Shown here: piece by piece, positions 1 through 45,908 of the stretch
How the letters are laid out: each line of letters starts with the position of its first letter
Position numbering within the stretch: the first letter of the stretch is position 1
Source: a virus
Virus record (IMG/VR): IMGVR_UViG_3300017643_000011
Coordinates: 1 to 45,908 of that record
DNA: 45,908 nucleotides
Strand: one strand, 5' to 3'
The notes under the pieces: model-generated
What the model saw: only the letters and a program-made list of their open reading frames with translations
What the model was told of the DNA's origin: nothing
Databases searched by the model: none
Made by a program: the position numbers and the translations under genes

Positions 1-127
1 CTCGGCGCCTGCCTTGGCGACCTCCAAAGCCGCTTGTCTGGTCGCAGCACCCACGTGGAGGGCGTACTCGTTCAGTTGGTCTTGCAGACCCGCGAGGGAA
101 TCGGTTGATAGTTTGATAGTAAAGGTA
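1..127. repeat. Terminal overlap: nt 1-127 identical to nt 45782-45908 (circular closure)
   Basis: Direct comparison of both window ends (ctcggcgcctgcc...gatagtaaaggta at both termini). Confidence 0.95.
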
Positions 128-19509: not shown

Positions 19510-20558
19510 TACTGGTTGTCCTCTCGGTTGGAAGTGGTGAGTCGGATGGACTCGCTCGTCTTGCAGAACTCCTGGTAGGTCCTGGGGTCGGCCTTCTTGA
19601 AGGCTGTGCCGTCGAACCTCGTGCTCTCTGTGCGGGAGAGCCTCCACACGAGTGTCTCCCCCGCGTACTCGGCCTTGGTATCACCCTCACCCATGCTCTC
19701 GGCGAGGGCGGTCTTGATGGCGTCCTTGAGGCCCGCGAGCCGCTCCTCCTTGGGGGCAAGCTCGGCCCCGAGGGCCTCGGCCTCGGCAACGAGTCCGGCT
19801 ATCCCCGTGTCGGCGGACGGGATGGCCGTGCGGAGGGCGTCGAGGTACTCCTTGTCGGTGCGCTCGTCGTAGTCGGGTGATTTGCCCGCCATGACGTGCT
19901 CGAACCACCAATCGCGTACCTGACCCATCCATATCTCGAAGTCCGGATACCTCTCGGCCATGGAGAACTCGACGGTGATGGTGTTGTCGCTTGAAATCGC
20001 CACGTCGGCCGGGTGCTCGTAGTCCTCGTCCTTGAGGAACGTGCAGACCATCACCACGTCATCGACGTGGAGGAGCGCGGCGTAGAGCGCGGCCTGCTCG
20101 GCGTAGTACTCGGGAACGCCGTCCTCCCAGTCCTCGGCGCGCTTCGTGGTCTTGCACTCGATGACCGTCTGGGGCACCCTGTCCTCGTCCACCACGAGGT
20201 AGTCCCACATGCCCCCGAAGATCGCATCGTCGGGGAAGAAGTCCCACCCGGCGTTGCGCGCCGGGTCGGGGCCGCCGTAGACGTCCTCGGGACGCAGGAG
20301 CGAGGACCCCAGGCCCATCGTCCCCTGCAACCAGTCGGCCTGGTGAGGCTCGATGGCCCGTCCCGCGACCGTGTAGATGGTGTCCTCGAATGGCGGCTTG
20401 TAGGTCCTCGTGACCTCGCACCACGCCTGGAAGGGGCTGCTCCAGCGGTTCAGGCCCCGCACCGCGGCGAACCGTGTGCCCGTGAGCTTGAGGGGTCGCC
20501 TCGGCTGCGCGACCTCGAGGTGCCGGTCGACCCATTTTCCCTTTGGCATACTACGCAT
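19509..20558 (-). CDS. YqaJ/lambda-Exo-like PD-(D/E)XK recombination exonuclease
   Basis: 'MWDYLVVDE...VIECKTTK' catalytic pattern. Adjacent to the Erf domain. Confidence 0.75.
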   Translation of the reverse strand: MRSMPKGKWVDRHLEVAQPRRPLKLTGTRFAAVRGLNRWSSPFQAWCEVTRTYKPPFEDTIYTVAGRAIEPHQADWLQGTMGLGSSLLRPEDVYGGPDPARNAGWDFFPDDAIFGGMWDYLVVDEDRVPQTVIECKTTKRAEDWEDGVPEYYAEQAALYAALLHVDDVVMVCTFLKDEDYEHPADVAISSDNTITVEFSMAERYPDFEIWMGQVRDWWFEHVMAGKSPDYDERTDKEYLDALRTAIPSADTGIAGLVAEAEALGAELAPKEERLAGLKDAIKTALAESMGEGDTKAEYAGETLVWRLSRTESTRFDGTAFKKADPRTYQEFCKTSESIRLTTSNREDNQ

Positions 20559-21414
20559 CCATCCTCTCGGTGACGGCCGCGATAAGCGTCTCGACGGTCT
20601 TGGTCGTGCCCGTGGTGAACTTCTCGGTCTTGTCCATGCAGAGCTTGGCGAGCTTGGTGGCCTTCTCGTCGTCGGGCTTGGCCTTGTGGAGCGCGGCCAC
20701 GTTCCTCTTGAGGCTGTTCAGGAGGAGCTTCGGGGCGGCGTTCCCCTCCGTCTGGGCGTCGGCGCTCGCCTTACGCTCGGTGGGCGTCGCGGGGGCCTTG
20801 TGGGACCTCTGGGCCGCGACGGGTGCCGCGACCGCCTTGGCGGGCGTCTCGCCCGTGCCCTGCCCCGCCTTCGGGTTGCCGATGTTGGAATCGATGGCGT
20901 CGGCCTCCACGAGGTCGAGGGCGATCATCCAGAAGTAGCGACGGTAGTAGGTGATGCTCGACCCCGCCGCCTGGCAGGGGTTCGTGGCGTTCTTGCCCGC
21001 GTTCGAGACGATGACGTCCATCGGGTCGTACGCCCCTTGGAACGCGATCCTCTCGGACGGCTCGTCCGCGTTCACGACCTCGAAGCCGTAGTTCTTCGGG
21101 GATTCCTTCGAGTAGGTGTATCCGAGGTTGGTGACGACCAGCACGAGGCCGAGGTCCTGGAACGTCTCCTCGGCCACGGGAACGATGTCCTCGAGCGAGT
21201 AGTAGGTGAACTCCAGGAACATGTTCTTGCCCGTCTTCTTGATGCCCTTGTGGAGCACCGTCGTTCGTGCGAGGGCGAGCTTCTGGTACACGTTGAGGTC
21301 ATGGGGGTTGGTGACGGCCTCGGTCTCGACCTTCTTGGTCGCTGTTCGCTTGCGTGGGGCGGTCTTGGGGGCCGTCTCGTTCTCTGTGGTTTCATTCTTG
21401 ATTGTCTCGGTCAT
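20551..21414 (-). CDS. possible independently translated Erf-family annealase (internal start)
   Basis: In-frame ATG at 21414 preceded by GAAGGAGAAGGAC (strong SD), exactly at the polymerase/Erf boundary. Confidence 0.4.
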   Translation of the reverse strand: MTETIKNETTENETAPKTAPRKRTATKKVETEAVTNPHDLNVYQKLALARTTVLHKGIKKTGKNMFLEFTYYSLEDIVPVAEETFQDLGLVLVVTNLGYTYSKESPKNYGFEVVNADEPSERIAFQGAYDPMDVIVSNAGKNATNPCQAAGSSITYYRRYFWMIALDLVEADAIDSNIGNPKAGQGTGETPAKAVAAPVAAQRSHKAPATPTERKASADAQTEGNAAPKLLLNSLKRNVAALHKAKPDDEKATKLAKLCMDKTEKFTTGTTKTVETLIAAVTERMDA

Positions 21415-23250
21415 GTCCTTCTCCTTCGCTGGCAGAAACTCGGCCACCCGTCTTTCGGCGAGTGCCACGTACCATGCCTTGTCGATGTCTTTGATGTCGG
21501 GGTTCTTCTCGTTGGCTACGAGACAGTGCTCGGGGAGGCTCGCTATCTTGGCGACTCCGCCCGTCTCGGCCTTGACCTTGTAGAGCGTGCCGAGGCCGTC
21601 ATACGTGGTGGCGAACACCCGGTTGCACTGTTGTCTGTCAACCTCGTCGTACACGTCCCGTCCCACCAGCTGGTAGACGCGGCTGTACTTGTGCGAGGCC
21701 TTGGCCGTGATCTGGTAGTCGGTGGGGTCGTCGTCCGCCGCCACGGTCTCGGAGGGCGGCGTCCCGTCGAGGATGGCGTGATGTATCGCCTCGGCGACCA
21801 CCCTGGCGTCGTTGGAGACGCCCCAGCCCCCGCCGCTCTTGACGCCACGAGCGAGGGTGCCGCCCTTGGTCTTGTCATGACCGTCGGTGAAGCGGGCGGC
21901 GTAGTTGTTCACGTCGCGCTGGGCCACCTTGGACAAATCGTCGCGTTCGAGCACGAGACCCGTCGCGTCCATCCACTCGCGGATGATGTCGTTCGTGGCC
22001 TCGGCGTCGGTCTTGGCTACGCGGAACATGATGCCGTCCGTGTTGAGCTGGATCAATTCGAGGCTCGGGGTGTCTCGCACCAGTCGGCAGGCGAGTCCCA
22101 GCATCACGACCTGGCCGCTCACGCACACCGAGCGGGCCATGCGAGGGTCGTACAACTTCGAGAACCTCTGGCGCATGACGCCGTATGTCGTGTTGAGCAC
22201 CAGCTTGAGGGCGTCGCTCAGGGCCTTGTCACCCGTGCGCTTGGCTTCGAGCCTTGCGTGGTAGGTGTCCTCGTAGCGTTTTGGTTCGGGGCAGTGACGG
22301 CTCATGAGGCCGTACCCGATGATCAGGGACGGGTACAGGCTTGCCACGTCCCAGTTGGCTATCACGTGCTCCGAGTCTGTCTCCCACATGGACCTCGGCA
22401 CCGCGCCGTGGATTCCCCCGAACGCAAGGGTCACAGGACAGCCGCCCACGTTCAGGTCGAGACTTGACGAGAACAGCTCGTCGTATGCCACGTTCGGGTC
22501 CTTGCCACGTCCGAAGAACGCCGCAGCAGCATCAGGTATCGGGAACGAGTCGAGCAGGGGCCACGTGTAGTCGCGTTCGTCGGCCTCTCGCTCCTCCGTC
22601 GTGCCCTCCGCGTCGGCGCGCAGGTACTCGGCGGTGAGCCTCCCGTTGGTCATGCCCAGGGCCTTCCACCCCTCCAGCCCCGCCATCGTGCCCAGCCGCG
22701 TCTTGGTCTCCAGGTAGTCCTTGCGCAGCACCGCGAGCCTGGCCGTGGACTCCACGTCATAGGCGCAGTAGCGCAGGACCTCCGCCATCTCGGCGTCCGT
22801 GAGGGCGCGGTCGATGTCGAACGGCACCGTGGACTCCCGGATGGGCCAGCCCATCTGCGACTCCACCGACTTGAGGCTCGTGCCCATCATGGTGTCGTCC
22901 ATGAGGTCGGTGTCGGGGTACCAGTACCTCTGGCCCCCGAACCCGGGCCAGTCCCAGTAGTTGTTCCCGTCCTTGATGATGAAGTCGTTCAGGTCGTGGG
23001 CCTCCTCGGGCGACGCCCCGAGGCAGAGGGCCGAGACGATGCCCCGGTCGTAGTGCTTGGAGTTGAACCCTGCTAGTGTATGGTCCTGTTTGATGACTCC
23101 CATGAAGTCGAGTAGGTCTTGGTTCTGGCCCGTCTGGAAGCCCCACGTGCGAGGCTCGCCCTCGGGTGGTGCGACCTCCCGGAAGCACACGCACCAGTCG
23201 TGCCGAAAGCACTCGCAGTCGTAGGCGACGAGGCCCCCTAGTCCTCCCAT
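20551..23250 (-). CDS. family B DNA polymerase fused in frame to an Erf-family single-strand annealing protein
   Basis: Exo motifs 'AYDCE', 'NSKHYD', 'YCAYDVEST'. Pol motifs A 'DVASLYPSLI', B 'KLVLNTTYG', C 'QLNTDGIMF'. The C-terminal ~290 aa show an Erf signature ('LNVYQKL...FTYYSLEDIVP...QAAGSSITYYRRY'). No stop codon separates the two parts. Confidence 0.8.
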   Translation of the reverse strand: MGGLGGLVAYDCECFRHDWCVCFREVAPPEGEPRTWGFQTGQNQDLLDFMGVIKQDHTLAGFNSKHYDRGIVSALCLGASPEEAHDLNDFIIKDGNNYWDWPGFGGQRYWYPDTDLMDDTMMGTSLKSVESQMGWPIRESTVPFDIDRALTDAEMAEVLRYCAYDVESTARLAVLRKDYLETKTRLGTMAGLEGWKALGMTNGRLTAEYLRADAEGTTEEREADERDYTWPLLDSFPIPDAAAAFFGRGKDPNVAYDELFSSSLDLNVGGCPVTLAFGGIHGAVPRSMWETDSEHVIANWDVASLYPSLIIGYGLMSRHCPEPKRYEDTYHARLEAKRTGDKALSDALKLVLNTTYGVMRQRFSKLYDPRMARSVCVSGQVVMLGLACRLVRDTPSLELIQLNTDGIMFRVAKTDAEATNDIIREWMDATGLVLERDDLSKVAQRDVNNYAARFTDGHDKTKGGTLARGVKSGGGWGVSNDARVVAEAIHHAILDGTPPSETVAADDDPTDYQITAKASHKYSRVYQLVGRDVYDEVDRQQCNRVFATTYDGLGTLYKVKAETGGVAKIASLPEHCLVANEKNPDIKDIDKAWYVALAERRVAEFLPAKEKDMTETIKNETTENETAPKTAPRKRTATKKVETEAVTNPHDLNVYQKLALARTTVLHKGIKKTGKNMFLEFTYYSLEDIVPVAEETFQDLGLVLVVTNLGYTYSKESPKNYGFEVVNADEPSERIAFQGAYDPMDVIVSNAGKNATNPCQAAGSSITYYRRYFWMIALDLVEADAIDSNIGNPKAGQGTGETPAKAVAAPVAAQRSHKAPATPTERKASADAQTEGNAAPKLLLNSLKRNVAALHKAKPDDEKATKLAKLCMDKTEKFTTGTTKTVETLIAAVTERMDA

Positions 23251-26170: not shown

Positions 26171-26304
26171 GCGGGGCGTTCGAGTATGTGCGTGGGCTGT
26201 CCATGTATAGAACACTAGTTCTAATGCCGGACAGAAATGTTTCAGACAGGGGAAGTCTCGGTCAGCGGTATAAGACTCCTCGCGATGCACGCATCTGAGA
26301 TTTT

Positions 26305-26337
26305 TGCTGCCAAATCTGCTGCCAAGTTGCTGCCAAA
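26305..26337 (+). repeat. three direct TGCTGCCAA(A) repeats (candidate integrase arm-type sites, arm 1)
   Basis: Copies at 26305, 26317 and 26328. The same 9-mer is repeated three times at 26533-26565. Confidence 0.7.
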
Positions 26338-26342
26338 CAAAA

Positions 26343-26372
26343 GAGGTCACGGGAAACATAGCCCGTGACCTC
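26343..26372 (-). terminator. hairpin terminator following the tRNA 3' fragment
   Basis: 11-bp perfect stem GAGGTCACGGG/CCCGTGACCTC, followed on the minus strand by TTTTGTTT. Confidence 0.55.
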
Positions 26373-26380
26373 GTCATTTA

Positions 26381-26430
26381 TGGTGGGCGTTGCAAGATTT
26401 GAACTTGCGACCTCTTCCGTGTCAGGGAAG
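26381..26430 (-). other. attP core: 3' portion of a long-variable-arm tRNA (variable arm, T-arm, acceptor 3' strand, CCA)
   Basis: Minus strand reads CTTCCCTGACACGGAAG-AGGTC-GCAAG-TTCAAAT-CTTGC-AACGCCC-A-CCA. No matching 5' acceptor strand or D-arm lies upstream. Confidence 0.65.
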
Positions 26431-26532
26431 TTAGGGTATAGTCGATTATCTGCCGACACTGCATCTACCTGCTAATATGTTGAGCACGAAAGAGGTCATA
26501 GGTGCTAGAATCGTCTAAAAACGGAGATGATT

Positions 26533-26565
26533 TGCTGCCAAATCTGCTGCCAAATCTGCTGCCAA
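26533..26565 (+). repeat. three direct TGCTGCCAA(A) repeats (arm 2), abutting the int ribosome-binding site
   Basis: Copies at 26533, 26545 and 26557 with 12-bp spacing. The int ATG is at 26586. Confidence 0.7.
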
Positions 26566-26585
26566 AAAAGGAGGACATATAAAAT

Positions 26586-27689
26586 ATGGAACTCGGTGGG
26601 GACTATCTCAGAAAGCGTGGCGACAAATGGCAACTGTGCATAAGATATCGAATCGATGACAATGACACGTGGCACATCAAGACGCACACGAGTGCGGCCA
26701 CCACGAAGCGTGACGCGAAGGCAGACATGCGCCAATGGCGAGACACGCTTGAAGGGCAAATCATCGCCGGTGATACCGCCGCCTACATCGCCGACTACGT
26801 GGATCGCTATGTGGACATGCTGGAGTCGGCCCATACCATCCGTCCGAACACGGTGGAGGGCTACCGATATGCGGCACTGCACATTCGCAAGGCTTTCGCC
26901 ACGACCCCACTGGACCGTCTGACAGCTCAGAAAGTGCAGAAGTGGGAAGCGTCCATGCTCTCCACCGGAAAATCCGTGGAGACCGTCACGAAGACCCACA
27001 GACTACTCAAGGCCGCCCTCGCGTATGCCGTGGAGGTGGACGACATCACCAAGAACCCCGTAGCTGCCGTGAAGCCACCGAAGATGCCGGCAAGACACCC
27101 GAACGCCCTCGATGCAGCAACGCGCAAGCGTCTCATGGAATCCCTCGACATGATGGGAGACTCCCCCGTCACGATGGCCGCGTGGATCGCCATGTGCGGC
27201 GGGCTTCGCGAGGGCGAGATATGTGGCCTCCGATGGGATGACGTGGACATGCGGGACGGCACGATGTGGGTCCGACGCGCGATAGCCCATACCAAAGCCG
27301 GAATGTACGTCAAGGAACCCAAGTCAGGACATGCACGAGACGTACCCATCACCGACACGCTCATGCGTCACCTCAAGGCGTGGCATGAGTACAGCACGTC
27401 CATCTACGTCATAGGCAAGGGCAAGGACTACCACAACCCGGCCATGCTCGGCAAGGAGTGGCGCACGATCTCGCGGGCACTCAACCTCGTCGGCACCGAA
27501 GGCCGGACCTGCACCTTCCATGACCTGCGCCACACCTTCGCCACCGCCGCCATAGCAGCGGGAGTGGACGTCAAGACGGTCTCGAGCATCCTGGGACACG
27601 CCAACGCCGCCATGACGCTCAACGTCTACGCGTCGGCCGACCCAGACGCGAAGAGGCGAGCGGCGAGTGTCATCGACGCCGCCATATGA
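26586..27689 (+). CDS. int: tyrosine integrase
   Basis: 'GLREGEICGLRW' (Arg), 'FHDLRHTFAT' (H-x-x-R), 'LGHANAAMTLNVYAS' (His...Tyr). SD AGGAGG. Confidence 0.9.
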   Translation: MELGGDYLRKRGDKWQLCIRYRIDDNDTWHIKTHTSAATTKRDAKADMRQWRDTLEGQIIAGDTAAYIADYVDRYVDMLESAHTIRPNTVEGYRYAALHIRKAFATTPLDRLTAQKVQKWEASMLSTGKSVETVTKTHRLLKAALAYAVEVDDITKNPVAAVKPPKMPARHPNALDAATRKRLMESLDMMGDSPVTMAAWIAMCGGLREGEICGLRWDDVDMRDGTMWVRRAIAHTKAGMYVKEPKSGHARDVPITDTLMRHLKAWHEYSTSIYVIGKGKDYHNPAMLGKEWRTISRALNLVGTEGRTCTFHDLRHTFATAAIAAGVDVKTVSSILGHANAAMTLNVYASADPDAKRRAASVIDAAI

Positions 27690-27846: not shown

Positions 27847-27927
27847 CGAATCGGGCGAAAGTTCGGCATGCGATAAGATATAAAATTTAGTATTTTCAGA
27901 TGCCGTGAGAATGACAGGCCATACGAA

Positions 27928-28875
27928 ATGAATAGATATGACAAGCTATACATAATCGGCAATGGACTCGATTTGCATTGTGGTATGCCGACCAAATACA
28001 GTGATTTCAGGGAGTATATGTTTGATACCCTCGACAAAACATATGGATACGACGGTTTCGGGCAGTTCATAGATAGGTATCCTAATCTTTGCCCCGATTG
28101 GCATAATTTCGAAGATGCGTTGGGACAGATTACCTGTCAGCCTATCAGTGATAGTTTTGAGGAATATCACGATATGTATGAAGCTGAAGTCGATCCAATG
28201 GATGACCCCGACTATGCAGTAGTAAATGCGTCAGAAAACACAGAAGAGGAGGTCAGCTCCTTCGACGAAGAGTCACTTAGAAAATACCTGCGGGAATGGG
28301 TTAGGAGTATTCCATTACCATCAGGTTTGTCCTTCGAGACACTTGGCATCATCGATACAGAAGGCACGCTATATATTAGCTTTAATTATACAAAAACTCT
28401 TGAGCAGGCGGGTGTCGATTCATCTCGAATCTGCCATATCCACGGTGCAATTTCAGATGAAAGTAATGATCTTGTCATAGGTCACGCCGCCCCAACTGGC
28501 AACATTAAAAAGTCAATCGATGACGCTGACACGAAATACTGTCCTTCCATTGAAGACAGACAACAGGATTTCTTTCCACATGGTGCATTCGACAAGGCAA
28601 ACCGCATTGTCGATGCAACCGAGAAACAAACGTTTGATCTCATCGCCGCGCACAAGGACTTTTTTGAACTCATCTCGGGTGTCAAGACAATCGAGACTCT
28701 TGGCTTTGGCTTTGGCGAGGCAGATATGCCGTACATCGAGAAAATCGCTTCCATTGCTTCAAAATCTGTCTCGTGGGAAATACGCTGTCATGACACAACC
28801 GCACGTGACGAGGCACAAAAGATGCTACAGAAGCATTCTCTCGAGTTATCCGCACACATTAGCGAGAGTTACTAG
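27928..28875 (+). CDS. AbiH-family abortive-infection protein
   Basis: 'KLYIIGNGLDLHCGMPTKYSDF', 'ISFNYTKTLE', 'ICHIHG', 'LVIGH', 'LGFGFGEADMPYI' follow the AbiH family pattern. AT-rich codon usage. Confidence 0.75.
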   Translation: MNRYDKLYIIGNGLDLHCGMPTKYSDFREYMFDTLDKTYGYDGFGQFIDRYPNLCPDWHNFEDALGQITCQPISDSFEEYHDMYEAEVDPMDDPDYAVVNASENTEEEVSSFDEESLRKYLREWVRSIPLPSGLSFETLGIIDTEGTLYISFNYTKTLEQAGVDSSRICHIHGAISDESNDLVIGHAAPTGNIKKSIDDADTKYCPSIEDRQQDFFPHGAFDKANRIVDATEKQTFDLIAAHKDFFELISGVKTIETLGFGFGEADMPYIEKIASIASKSVSWEIRCHDTTARDEAQKMLQKHSLELSAHISESY

Positions 28876-28933
28876 GCGGCAGAAGTAGCAGAACAATATA
28901 TGGCATAGGCCACCAATCCAAGGAAGTCAGGTT

Positions 28934-29047
28934 ATGTATAACCCCTTTCACGACGAGAGCGGAAACGAAATCGACCTTCACAAGGTCTCGTTTGGCGTGC
29001 TCTCCCTCCTAAGCAAGGTCGAGAAAGACTACTTGAACGAATACTGA
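28934..29047 (+). CDS. possible 37-aa ORF downstream of abiH
   Basis: ATG after AAGGAAG. Followed by hairpin CGGGATT...AATCCCG (about 29064-29098) and T-rich sequence. Very short, so speculative. Confidence 0.2.
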   Translation: MYNPFHDESGNEIDLHKVSFGVLSLLSKVEKDYLNEY

Positions 29048-29264
29048 AGCGTCTGCCGATAAACGGGATTATGTCTTGTCGGTTTGCGGGAAATCCCGTG
29101 TATGTTTGTCCGAATCTCCAGCGAACAGGCCTTAGAACGCCTTACAGCAAGCCATCTACCTGGCATTTTGCCATATAGTTTGAGAGTACTTCATTACATA
29201 GAAACAGTGTCGATATTCGGTATTATTTTGAAAGAACATGTCTCGTTAAAACAGACGGGTGAAT

Positions 29265-29852
29265 ATGGATATCGGACAAATCATCTCCGTACTAACGTTA
29301 TTTTTTATTGTTGGCGGATACTTGCTCAAGAGAGTTCTGGAAAAAACAATCGACGCCGCAGTGACCTCATCATTTGAAAAGCATCTTGAATACTATCGAG
29401 ACGATCTTTCGCGAGCGTTCGTTGCACGGAAGTTTATGCTCAGCCGCGAAATGAAGTTTTTTGATCTGGCCGATAGGCAGCTTGCCGAACTGATTCCTCT
29501 AATTCAGGATCTAAATCGGACAGTCCAGGATGGGTCCTTTAATGCGTTCGATAAGAAGTGCTATATAAGATATACCGAGCTGATTCTTGCGATGAAAAAC
29601 ATGTGGTTAACATATGAATCATATATAGAAGATAGAAACGTCTGCCAAGGCTATGTTGAGCTTGTGTCTCAAATGCAGGAGGATGCTCCCATGTGGATGG
29701 GCTGGGCGGAAGCACTTTCCGGTAAACGAGAGATCACCGCGGAAATGAAAACTGATGCGGGGCGTCTTTGCGATGGCTTGCTAAAGAACATTGCCCATAT
29801 TCGCTGTGACCAACGTGATTACTTGAAATCAATATCGAGTAAGGGAAAGTAG
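29265..29852 (+). CDS. single-pass membrane protein, unknown function (island 1)
   Basis: N-terminal TM 'IISVLTLFFIVGGYLL' followed by about 170 aa of helical-looking sequence. AT-rich. Confidence 0.6.
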   Translation: MDIGQIISVLTLFFIVGGYLLKRVLEKTIDAAVTSSFEKHLEYYRDDLSRAFVARKFMLSREMKFFDLADRQLAELIPLIQDLNRTVQDGSFNAFDKKCYIRYTELILAMKNMWLTYESYIEDRNVCQGYVELVSQMQEDAPMWMGWAEALSGKREITAEMKTDAGRLCDGLLKNIAHIRCDQRDYLKSISSKGK

Positions 29853-29926
29853 TATTTTGCCGCTGGTCTGAGAAACTCACATCAGTGATGCAATTCCATT
29901 TTCAATAACCGCGATGGTAGGCAGTG

Positions 29927-29960
29927 AGCATCGTTCGACCAGTGGTGAACGATGCTTTTG
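29927..29960 (+). terminator. rho-independent terminator
   Basis: AGCATCGTTC-(10 nt)-GAACGATGCT followed by TTTTG. Confidence 0.55.
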
Positions 29961-30316
29961 CGCGCGACACACGAGAATGTTGCTACGCCACTCTCGCGTC
30001 GAACGATTACGGCAACGGCCCCAGCCGGTCCCTTCGGTTCGGTGCTCACAACCCAAGACGTGAACAGAGTCCGGCTACGGTCATAATCTCACGCCCGGCA
30101 TGGACTTCGAGCATGATCCAGGTTGCAGGCGTCACGGTTGCTATGTAATTGGTCATGAACAGGACGAATTGGATGCACGAGAGGAATTAGCTGAGATACA
30201 ACAGGGCCTGGTTTCAATTGCTGCTGTTTATGCTGGCAGTGATAGTGATATGATTTCAAACAGATGTGGGTACCAGTGCAGATTGGAGAACATCTGTGGA
30301 CCAGAACACAGCCACT

Positions 30317-31120
30317 ATGATTGCTGCACTTGCTGCTTGCGGCGCTGCAGTATTTTCCTTTTTTCAGACGAAAATGATGTACAAGGCTTCGAAACATGAT
30401 GCATATGTGCAGAAGAATTTACAGTCTGCATCACTTGCGTTATTCTATGCAACTCAAATAATTCCTAGATGCTCCTATATGCATATGGCACTTGCACACT
30501 CAGATGCGTATGCATCACTTAAGAGTGACCTTTCAAAGAGCTACTATCGAAAGGGTCCGGTTAAGTTCGATTCGGATGAGTTTAAATGCATCACTGGGAA
30601 AACTCCTTTTGACTTCACGAAAGCACTTTGGAAGGAATTGGAAACAGATGATAGCAACGTCTTTCATGACACGATGAGAGCGCATATATATCTGCAAATT
30701 TCCTATCCATCGATTGGAAGCCAGATTAACCCCACTATTCCCGATCAGGATGAAGAAACTGACAAAGTAGCATGTGATAAAACTAATGTGTTCCTGCTAA
30801 AAGAAGAATTTTCCACAATAGCTGTTGAGTTACTTAATGACCTTGAGTATTTCAGCATGTCAATAAACACCGGAGTCGCGGATAGCGATACTTTGTATCC
30901 GTCAATACATCAGACTTTCTTTGATATTGCAAGAGAGCTGTATTGGTGCATCTGCAATACAAATAAGACAACGGAAAAGGCAGCGGATAGATATTACACA
31001 CATGTTATAGATTTATATAACTCATGGCAGGAGGAATGTGATAGCTGCTCAAAAAGACTTGATAACGAGAAAACTACTTCAAATGAAATATATAAAATAA
31101 ATAGGGATGCTGCTCTGTAA
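30317..31120 (+). CDS. single-pass membrane protein, unknown function (island 1)
   Basis: TM 'MIAALAACGAAVFSFF' followed by about 250 aa. Alternative GTG start at 30266. The segment 'LNDLEYFSMSINTGVADSD...' faintly recalls DUF4760-type proteins (memory only). Confidence 0.6.
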   Translation: MIAALAACGAAVFSFFQTKMMYKASKHDAYVQKNLQSASLALFYATQIIPRCSYMHMALAHSDAYASLKSDLSKSYYRKGPVKFDSDEFKCITGKTPFDFTKALWKELETDDSNVFHDTMRAHIYLQISYPSIGSQINPTIPDQDEETDKVACDKTNVFLLKEEFSTIAVELLNDLEYFSMSINTGVADSDTLYPSIHQTFFDIARELYWCICNTNKTTEKAADRYYTHVIDLYNSWQEECDSCSKRLDNEKTTSNEIYKINRDAAL

Positions 31121-31132
31121 TGCAGCATCCCT
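31103..31132. terminator. bidirectional hairpin terminator
   Basis: AGGGATGCTGC-(8 nt)-GCAGCATCCCT, spanning the stop codon, with T/A-rich flanks on both sides. Confidence 0.5.
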
Positions 31133-31159
31133 ATTTGCCAACCTATTGCTAAGAAACCA

Positions 31160-31408
31160 TCACTCCTTGGAATCTTCCTCTTTAGCATTAGATTCAGATT
31201 CACTCTTCGCAGCTTCACTGTCCGACTTTTCCCAGTCCTCTACGAAAGAACCCCACATATCTTGCACTCCTTTCAGCAGAAGCGACCTTGTGGACCAAAT
31301 TGATTCGTTTCCGCAAAACCAGGGGCGAATCAATTGACCTCTTAATACTATAGACCAAACACACGATTGTGATAGGCGATCTTCGTCAAGAACTCGGCGC
31401 AAATACAT
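31160..31408 (-). CDS. possible small acidic protein
   Basis: 82-aa ORF ending at the bidirectional terminator. C-terminal 'EKSDSEAAKSESESNAKEEDSKE'. Weak evidence. Confidence 0.3.
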   Translation of the reverse strand: MYLRRVLDEDRLSQSCVWSIVLRGQLIRPWFCGNESIWSTRSLLLKGVQDMWGSFVEDWEKSDSEAAKSESESNAKEEDSKE

Positions 31409-31473
31409 ACGAACAAACTCGACCCACTTTCCACACCCAACCTAACACAAAAGGGACCTGTTCGAAAGCTCTC

Positions 31474-45443: not shown

Positions 45444-45908
45444 CGCCTGACCTCCCGTGCGACCGTCTCGGATAGCTGGCTGCGCATGAGCTGGCTCGCC
45501 TTGTACATGAATCCGCGCCCGTTCTGTCCTGTGGTCGTTCGCCAATCACCCGCCATGAGGGAGAAGAAGGGCCAGCCGTTCGCCCAGTCCTGGTGTCCCA
45601 GCGTTCTCGGACCGACCCCGAGCCTCGCGGCGTCGGGTCCGGCGTTCCCGAGTCCGGTGCCGAACTCCACGAACGCAGCCTCCCGCGAAGCGGCCACCAC
45701 GGCGGCGCCCCTCGCGGTCGGCACGGCGCGGATGGACGAACGAAGGCCACCGATGCCCACGGGGACCGTCTCTCGCGCATCCTCGGCGCCTGCCTTGGCG
45801 ACCTCCAAAGCCGCTTGTCTGGTCGCAGCACCCACGTGGAGGGCGTACTCGTTCAGTTGGTCTTGCAGACCCGCGAGGGAATCGGTTGATAGTTTGATAG
45901 TAAAGGTA
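45440..45908 (-). CDS. HK97 gp10-family head-tail joining protein (5' end continues across the circular junction; ATG at 130-132)
   Basis: 'REAAFVEFGTG' gp10-type motif. The reading frame runs through the window end, and the duplicated copy at 1-132 supplies 'MPTFTIKLSTDSLAGLQDQLNEYALHVGAATRQ'. Confidence 0.6.
   Translation of the reverse strand, partial: TFTIKLSTDSLAGLQDQLNEYALHVGAATRQAALEVAKAGAEDARETVPVGIGGLRSSIRAVPTARGAAVVAASREAAFVEFGTGLGNAGPDAARLGVGPRTLGHQDWANGWPFFSLMAGDWRTTTGQNGRGFMYKASQLMRSQLSETVAREVRR

Follow-up and report, generated by a model that had tools for sequence, protein, structure and literature searches.

What is the function of two AT-rich genes that lie between the integrase gene and the lysis genes of a temperate phage? 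The question is raised by the window analysed here, a whole stretch of 45,908 nucleotides of viral DNA (IMG/VR virus record IMGVR_UViG_3300017643_000011, positions 1 to 45,908), in which two consecutive plus-strand open reading frames (ORFs), ORF1 (29265–29852) and ORF2 (30296–31120), follow a copy of abiH. An earlier reading of the letters, made without database searches and referred to below as the sequence-only reading, had taken both to encode single-pass membrane proteins that act in abortive infection or superinfection exclusion, possibly within a stacked defence island or a multi-gene system with abiH. Our analysis leans, with slightly more confidence than doubt, towards two independent acquired cassettes behind abiH, ORF1 being a stand-alone anti-phage protein and ORF2 an exclusion or defence protein that is expressed in the lysogen.

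Both reading frames are genes. ORF1 encodes 195 residues from an ATG codon (an alternative GTG start lies at 29259); it has 57 representative relatives with a constant length of about 200 residues, and its fold is predicted with a predicted local distance difference test (pLDDT) score of 96.3. ORF2 encodes 274 residues from a GTG codon, with the sequence GGAGA at 30285–30289, six bases upstream. Alternative starts are found at GTG 30266 (284 residues) and ATG 30317 (267 residues), and the 274-residue and 267-residue products correspond in length to cluster members P0068 and P0002, respectively. Relatives of ORF2 occur in 26 viral contigs in IMG/VR, and its fold is predicted with a pLDDT of 75 and a predicted template-modelling score (pTM) of 0.69. 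The two consecutive genes that had been called from the letters (195 and 267–284 residues) are supported by relatives and predicted folds alike.

Independence of the cassettes

ORF1 (44% GC) and ORF2 (40% GC) stand apart from a locus of 60–61% GC. They belong to a low-GC island (approximately 27875–31470; 37–49% GC) within a genome that is about 64% GC overall and 61–71% GC in most parts, and abiH shares this low GC content, in agreement with the sequence-only reading. The island is broken by a patch of 58% GC at 29900–30125. This backbone-like spacer lies between ORF1 and ORF2 and suggests that the two genes were acquired separately.

Each of abiH, ORF1 and ORF2 has its own downstream hairpin. 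That between abiH and ORF1 is terminator-like (29085–29100). Downstream of ORF1, a plus-strand hairpin at 29921–29961 (core 29926–29957; −25.1 kcal/mol, z −2.96) is followed by UUUU and is likely to be the intrinsic terminator of the gene. The stop codon of ORF2 is overlapped by a perfect 15-bp hairpin at 31099–31136 (−27.2 kcal/mol, z −7.8), which is called bidirectional because the better T-run is on the minus strand. The hairpins that had been proposed as individual terminators of the two genes are both present. A consensus scan also found a weak promoter-like site upstream of ORF1 (TAGAAA-16-TATTAT, 29199–29226, plus strand; nine of 12 matches), and such sites are no commoner in this region than in shuffled sequence.

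Autonomous cargo cassettes of prophages are known as morons, a definition that comes from the lambdoid phages HK97 and HK022. One defining trait, a base composition unlike that of the phage backbone, is seen in both ORF1 and ORF2. As regards another, an own promoter and terminator, hairpins follow both genes and a promoter-like site, at chance density, precedes ORF1 only. On a third, expression from the repressed prophage, the evidence is indirect and comes from the relative 80alpha gp73, which is transcribed in lysogens (PMC6107660).

The arrangement could also be read as one multi-gene defence system in which AbiH is the effector and the two membrane proteins are sensors or anchors. The three genes are adjacent, lie on the same strand, are alike in their low GC content and are kept as a trio in all near-identical copies of this phage. 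These copies are, however, essentially one phage (99.9–100% DNA identity), and when all fetched loci were searched in six frames with hmmsearch, members of both families turned up together only in them. Elsewhere, ORF1 relatives stand beside seven different defence gene sets and ORF2 relatives stand alone in other phages, and an hhalign comparison of the two family alignments found no relation. In one variant (L005), unrelated DNA stands in place of the 5′ two-thirds of abiH, and ORF1 and ORF2 are complete and, like the rest of the phage, 99.98% identical to the window. With a separate hairpin after each gene as well, a three-gene system is very improbable and can be regarded as largely excluded. 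Of the proposed defence island, autonomous foreign cargo stacked with a bona fide abiH is therefore what stands; the multi-gene system does not, since the families co-occur only here, have no conserved partner and persist together where abiH is truncated. The island consists of single-gene cassettes, acquired horizontally and independently of one another and stacked one behind the next.

Architecture of ORF1

ORF1 has a strongly hydrophobic helix at residues 3–21 (mean Kyte–Doolittle hydropathy 2.09), and 35 of the 39 aligned family members contain a segment above the hydropathy cutoff of 1.6. In the AlphaFold2 model the body of the protein is all-helical, with helices spanning residues 3–89, 94–120, 124–152 and 159–193. 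The first of these is continuous and comprises the membrane segment (3–21), a stalk of approximately 30 residues and the first helix of a bundle; the remaining three helices complete an up-down four-helix bundle. The layout that had been proposed for both proteins, one N-terminal hydrophobic helix followed by a helical-looking soluble domain, is borne out by this model and, as described below, by that of ORF2.

The N-terminal tail of the ORF1 family is short and net-acidic, with a mean length of seven residues. In 37 of 38 members, Lys and Arg are commoner behind the membrane helix than ahead of it, with means of 0.6 in the tail and 2.7 in the 15 residues that follow the helix. According to the positive-inside rule, the side of a membrane helix that is rich in Lys and Arg lies inside. 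Because of this charge bias the four-helix bundle is placed in the cytoplasm, and the predicted orientation is N-out/C-in, with the tail outside.

The polar positions K39, R50, E62, D82, K111, Y120 and Q138 are each conserved in at least 87% of the members and, with A54, centre on an AELIPLIQD-like segment. In two 390-residue relatives (P0025 and P0034) the ORF1-type bundle is C-terminal and lies behind a different, multi-pass anchor with approximately three membrane segments. These natural domain fusions argue that the unit of function is a bundle tethered to the membrane.

Neither ORF1 nor any of the relatives tested is matched by a model in Pfam, NCBIfam, PHROG or PADLOC, and a profile search of PDB sequences returned nothing. 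When ORF1 and ORF2 were compared with the 5027 models of PADLOC-DB v2.0.0, no family was found for either protein even at E values of up to 1, with abiH scoring as the positive control. A match in BFVD between ORF1 and a protein of Haemophilus phage HP1, encoded between int and cI, was rejected by hhalign. The remote-homology search that the sequence-only reading had called for was productive for ORF2, which it led to PHROG 9659, but gave no described family for ORF1.

Genomic surroundings of the ORF1 family

A word-indexed search of 5.8 billion proteins matched ORF1 only to itself. When 1.84 billion representatives were scanned exhaustively with HMMER, the search gathered 57 clusters, nearly all of 190–210 residues, and no relatives were found in IMG/VR. 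A degenerate DNA pattern drawn from the conserved positions (R50..A54..E62..AxL[IV]PxxQD) picked out 14 genome-contig and 16 metagenome-contig stretches, all of which proved with hmmsearch to be chance hits.

Nine relatives were looked up in their genomic contexts and seven of them had usable flanks (at least 2 kb). All seven loci contain restriction–modification, Abi, Gabija, Septu-like or PDC genes, which makes eight of eight when the window is included. In P0007 the homologue is preceded by Mrr, an MmeI-type enzyme and a PtuA-like ATPase (2e-38) and followed by GmrSD and by PDC-M41A with a radical-SAM partner. In P0008 the homologue lies between a PDC-M49A-like gene and an LlaJI-type restriction–modification system, and in P0021 it begins 11 bases after an HsdR–HsdM–HsdS set and is followed by AbiJ (1e-26). 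The next gene in P0010 is Abi_alpha/PDC-S47 (1e-61), whereas the previous gene in P0011 is AbiU/AIPR (1e-156), a locus that also encodes an HEPN-like Ymh protein. GajB (1.6e-81) is upstream in P0009 and PDC-M09A is nearby in P0012. The family gene immediately adjoins an Abi or restriction–modification gene in five of the eight contexts, and its GC content is below that of its flanks in seven of the eight loci measured, the window copy included. No partner gene is common to the contexts, and no conserved small ORF lies upstream of the ORF1 relatives.

Such a distribution might also arise if the family consisted of generic membrane adaptors or hitchhikers, such as addiction or stress modules, with a tendency to gather in variable islands. 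The neighbours do differ in every context, the fold is a generic four-helix bundle and several of the neighbours are themselves uncharacterized membrane proteins. However, the architecture and the polar signature are strongly conserved across the 57 clusters, the genes next door are immediately Abi or restriction–modification genes in most contexts, and the bundle is also fused to another multi-pass anchor, which suggests a functional membrane-tethered module. We therefore consider hitchhiking improbable. The reading that we prefer, as judged from family searches and contexts, is that ORF1, here the founding member of an unannotated family, is likely to be a stand-alone defence-island gene that was captured by the phage. 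The defence role is a case of strong guilt by association, not proof.

The islands that house ORF1 relatives encode other unannotated membrane proteins, at L079 2043–3092, L040 5902–6705 and L045 1750–2460. One such neighbour, adjoining AbiU, is a 349-residue multi-pass protein with the C-terminal sequence RYRNYLVH, an Rx4H HEPN-like motif. A 267-residue neighbour of the ORF1 homologue in L040 has the same length as one form of ORF2 but is unrelated to it.

ORF2 and the PHROG 9659 family

The N-terminal helix of ORF2 is Ala-rich and only weakly hydrophobic (1.41), but it is clear in the family, with values of 1.99–2.38 in all four relatives. The predicted structure of the body is all-helical, and the positive-inside charge pattern is present in five of five family members. 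Comparison with the PDB gave no significant match by fold (best E at least 0.07) and none by sequence profile.

The family assignment comes from the C-terminal part of the protein. Residues 181–263 of ORF2, and these only, match phrog_9659 (E = 2.7e-12, 48 bits), and all of the ORF2 relatives tested match this profile too. It is matched at 2.5e-190 by gp73 of the staphylococcal phage 80alpha, which a hidden Markov model (HMM) of the ORF2 family finds in turn at 2.1e-25. While ORF2 itself aligns C-terminally only, its relative in L020 aligns over profile positions 9–263. The sequence-only reading had reported a faint impression of DUF4760 for this protein, and Pfam returns an equally faint one: the match to DUF4760 (PF15956) has an E value of 0.042 and a score of 14.4 bits, below the gathering score of 25, so that ORF2 is not a member by the Pfam rule. 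Residues 179–254 align to positions 68–141, the C-terminal half of that model, which is matched by four of the five family members (best E 7.9e-6). An iterated search recovered relatives at 26–44% identity, and the family shares the core LLNxLEYFSMxINTGVADxxxLYPSxHQTFF and a conserved Trp. These profile matches place ORF2 as a divergent member within PHROG 9659, with a marginal relationship to DUF4760. A search of the literature on DUF4760, PF15956 and phrog_9659 found no functional study and no function assigned to the family.

Besides the 26 viral contigs, the ORF2 family is found in 18 staphylococcal phage records and one faecal phage contig, and the GC content of the gene is always below that of its locus. 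In 80alpha, gp73 is downstream of and on the same strand as the holin–endolysin pair, with the minus-strand gp72 between the endolysin and gp73, and ORF73 adjoins attR, the right-hand attachment site (PMC9040582). The few phage genes transcribed in lysogens of 80alpha include gp72 and gp73, most lytic genes being low (PMC6107660). In L015 the relative directly follows an amidase gene, and in L014 one small gene intervenes between the two. The L011 relative has an M23 lysin ahead of it and a host aminotransferase gene immediately behind it, that of L020 is flanked by an integrase and a Fic gene, and that of L022 is next to a serine recombinase. The data support the view that the ORF2 family is a prophage-end moron family of Gram-positive phages.

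The closest relative of ORF2 (44% identity; L007 10001–10834) has 46% GC in a phage of 62% GC. It is the sole plus-strand gene within a 20-kb minus-strand run and lies between the large terminase gene and the early genes.

Several of these positions would also suit an accessory of the lysis module, for example one that is anchored in the membrane and regulates the timing of holin or endolysin, in place of a defence or exclusion gene. The family is membrane-anchored, gp73 shares its strand with the holin–endolysin pair upstream of it, and the relatives in L014, L015 and L011 closely follow a co-oriented lysin gene. In the window, however, ORF2 and the lysis genes converge, with the bidirectional hairpin between them, the L020 and L022 relatives abut recombinases, and the relative in the P0003 phage stands alone on the opposite strand, next to the terminase gene. 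The transcription of gp73 in the lysogen, at a time when most lytic genes are low (PMC6107660), and a GC content that is always below that of the phage also speak against a lysis role, which we regard as improbable.

Another explanation concerns both genes, one or both of which might serve lysogenic conversion (stress tolerance, surface properties or competition) and not act against phages at all. As general knowledge of staphylococcal and streptococcal phages has it, the prophage-end slot commonly holds such cargo, and no defence model matches either ORF1 or ORF2. Lysogeny by 80alpha as a whole also alters host transcription and biofilm formation (PMC6107660). On the other hand, ORF1 relatives are mostly chromosomal, lie in dense defence islands and have no PHROG match, and in the window ORF1 and ORF2 stand directly beside abiH. 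Lysogenic conversion is in our view unlikely, although less so than a role for ORF2 in lysis. For ORF2, we favour exclusion or another function that benefits the lysogen because the family is strictly phage-borne, att-proximal and, in the case of gp73, expressed in the lysogen; ORF2 probably serves exclusion or defence and is probably expressed in the lysogen too.

Proposed functions and their weighing

For ORF1, the chromosomal defence-island habitat of the family leads us to favour general defence over phage-specific exclusion. It would be an anti-phage protein in its own right, at work on the cytoplasmic side of the membrane. There, the bundle may bind a protein of the phage or the host through its conserved polar face, after which ORF1 could either block an early membrane-associated step or damage the membrane (abortive infection), the damage perhaps being brought about by oligomerization through the stalk and the membrane helix. 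ORF2 would provide a membrane-anchored superinfection-exclusion or defence function in the lysogen.

A more ambitious version can be formulated for the two families jointly. The ORF1 family would be an uncatalogued, self-sufficient immunity protein that senses a phage component at the inner side of the membrane and then blocks genome entry or collapses the membrane, or else a portable cofactor that potentiates an adjacent defence gene, and gp73/PHROG 9659 would be a superinfection-exclusion determinant that is widespread in Gram-positive prophages and was overlooked in 80alpha. We hold this combination to be clearly less probable than the two independent cassettes described above, and rather unlikely as a whole.

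A number of points weigh against assigning anti-phage functions to these cassettes. We infer the activity and the mechanism of both proteins, and the topology of both is predicted from charge bias alone. Neither ORF1 nor ORF2 contains a catalytic motif, and the ORF1 structure has no significant match in the PDB or BFVD, where it finds only generic four-helix bundles (E at least 0.07). The model of ORF2 is moderately confident, three of the five models having a pLDDT of only 53–55, and the consensus scan found no promoter-like site for this gene. The defence association of ORF1 comes from eight contexts chosen by availability, a small sample with no formal background control, and defence islands also hold hitchhikers that have nothing to do with defence. 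Finally, among the 74 neighbours of the ORF2 family in 16 loci, the hits mostly concern lysis and lysogeny and not defence. They include amidases, holins, integrases and cI/ImmA-type regulators, the defence-type neighbours being one SoFic, one methyltransferase (the source of many methyltransferase-model hits) and capH/capP-type regulators. Of the neighbourhoods that the first reading of the letters had suggested analysing for known defence genes, those of ORF1 relatives contain such genes in every usable context, and those of ORF2 relatives mainly contain lysis and lysogeny genes.

The phage genome and the attP–int region

The first 127 bases of the window (1–127) are the same as the last 127 (45782–45908), so that the contig is a circular assembly and represents a complete 45.8-kb phage genome. 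The JGI record Ga0183098_10654 has the identical sequence. The order of features is the phage attachment site (attP), int, abiH, ORF1, ORF2 and then the convergent minus-strand lysis genes, which encode a papain-like peptidase, a CHAP/peptidoglycan-binding endolysin and small membrane proteins. This gene order confirms that ORF1 and ORF2 occupy the classic cargo position between int and the lysis genes.

The attP core is a tRNA-like sequence on the minus strand at 26384–26454 (Rfam tRNA 26.7 bits, gathering score 29), at which ARAGORN reports nothing. Apart from this core, Rfam identified no RNA family in the intergenic stretches. In two integrated copies, L002 and L003, host DNA begins at approximately 26380–26409, to the left of which the window sequence departs from them. 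Arrays of the repeat TCTGCTGCCAAA are present on either side of the tRNA-like core, at 26303–26349 and 26531–26589, and are probably arm-type sites of the integrase. The tyrosine integrase gene follows on the plus strand (26586–27689; Pfam Phage_integrase, 6e-27), and the first cassette of the low-GC island is abiH (27928–28875, plus strand; Pfam AbiH, 3.4e-43; PADLOC AbiH, 8.2e-18). In the L005 variant, positions 1–499 join the window sequence at 28579 within abiH, and the replacement encodes a zinc-ribbon protein with a hydrophobic tail.

Two small ORFs flank the pair. A 37-residue plus-strand ORF at 28934–29047, between abiH and ORF1, is an annotated gene in every public copy; it has no PHROG match and is unlike any gene that flanks ORF1 relatives elsewhere. 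On the minus strand, convergent with ORF2, an uncertain ORF of 82 residues at 31160–31408 is uncalled. It would have an acidic tail rich in Ser and Glu, has no PADLOC or PHROG match and occupies the final low-GC part of the island, where the plus strand is strongly skewed towards C; the hairpin at 31099–31136 would serve as its terminator. Elsewhere in the genome, an unusually long protein of 899 residues with an ERF single-strand-annealing domain is encoded on the minus strand at approximately 20551–23250 (L001 235–2934), adjoining an SNF2-type helicase and a YqaJ-like exonuclease in the replication and recombination module.

The only named relative of the endolysin is from Bifidobacterium phage Bbif-1 (31% identity). 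A query with the endolysin found no relatives in IMG/VR, and a phage database gave no DNA match. The phage is temperate and its host is taken to be an uncultured high-GC Gram-positive bacterium.

Significance and comparison with known systems

Prophage cargo beside int is a main source of new immunity genes. The ORF1 family is compact, confidently folded and unannotated, and its only known habitat is among restriction–modification, Abi, Gabija and Septu-type genes. Its conserved polar residues make the family amenable to study as a candidate for a new mechanism of single-gene defence at the membrane and, although candidate defence genes are numerous, we consider it a credible one. ORF2 ties an uncultured phage to gp73, a lysogen-expressed, att-proximal gene of 80alpha, one of the staphylococcal phages most often used as a model. 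A role found for gp73 could extend to the family across phages of Firmicutes and Actinobacteria. If neither gene protects, the lesson would be that low GC content and adjacency to defence genes alone over-predict immunity functions.

The passage of a membrane helix straight into an up-down four-helix bundle in the ORF1 model recalls the ligand-binding domains of the chemoreceptors Tar, Tsr and PcaY, with target-normalized template-modelling scores (TM-scores) of 0.5–0.63. The resemblance is at the level of the fold only, with E values of at least 0.2 and no sequence relation. The chemoreceptor domains lie in the periplasm, with a second membrane helix and a signalling domain after them, whereas the bundle of ORF1 is predicted to be cytoplasmic and ends the protein.

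A temperate Gram-positive phage with a small single-pass membrane protein encoded next to int has a precedent in Sie2009 (Tuc2009 orf2) of a lactococcal prophage. The analogy is functional only: homology of the ORF1 and ORF2 families to Sie2009 was rejected, with hhalign probabilities of 0.1–0.4%. Sie2009 has a Lys-rich N-terminal tail, a Ser/Thr-rich linker and a C-terminal domain that does not look helical, whereas ORF1 and ORF2 have acidic or short tails and all-helical bodies that are predicted to be cytoplasmic.

With the single-gene Abi systems and candidates in PADLOC (AbiH, AbiJ, AbiU, PDC-S47 and others), which adjoin its relatives, ORF1 shares the island habitat and the low GC content, although no PADLOC model matches ORF1 or ORF2. 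The comparison with DUF4760 is limited by size, proteins of the ORF2 type being about twice the length of the model (141 positions), with the N-terminal half outside it. A DUF4760 protein has been reported next to a recombinase in a Serratia genomic island (PMC9964261).

The closest parallel for ORF2 is 80alpha gp73 and the rest of PHROG 9659. The two differ in several respects: only about 80 C-terminal residues align (approximately 39% identity over 66 residues by tblastn), the host of 80alpha is Staphylococcus whereas that of the present phage is of the high-GC actinobacterial type of phylum, and gp73 is co-oriented with the lysis genes whereas ORF2 is convergent with them. They are nevertheless alike in length (267–306 residues against 278), in the N-terminal hydrophobic helix, in the C-terminal core and in the att-proximal slot at the end of the prophage, beside the lysis genes.

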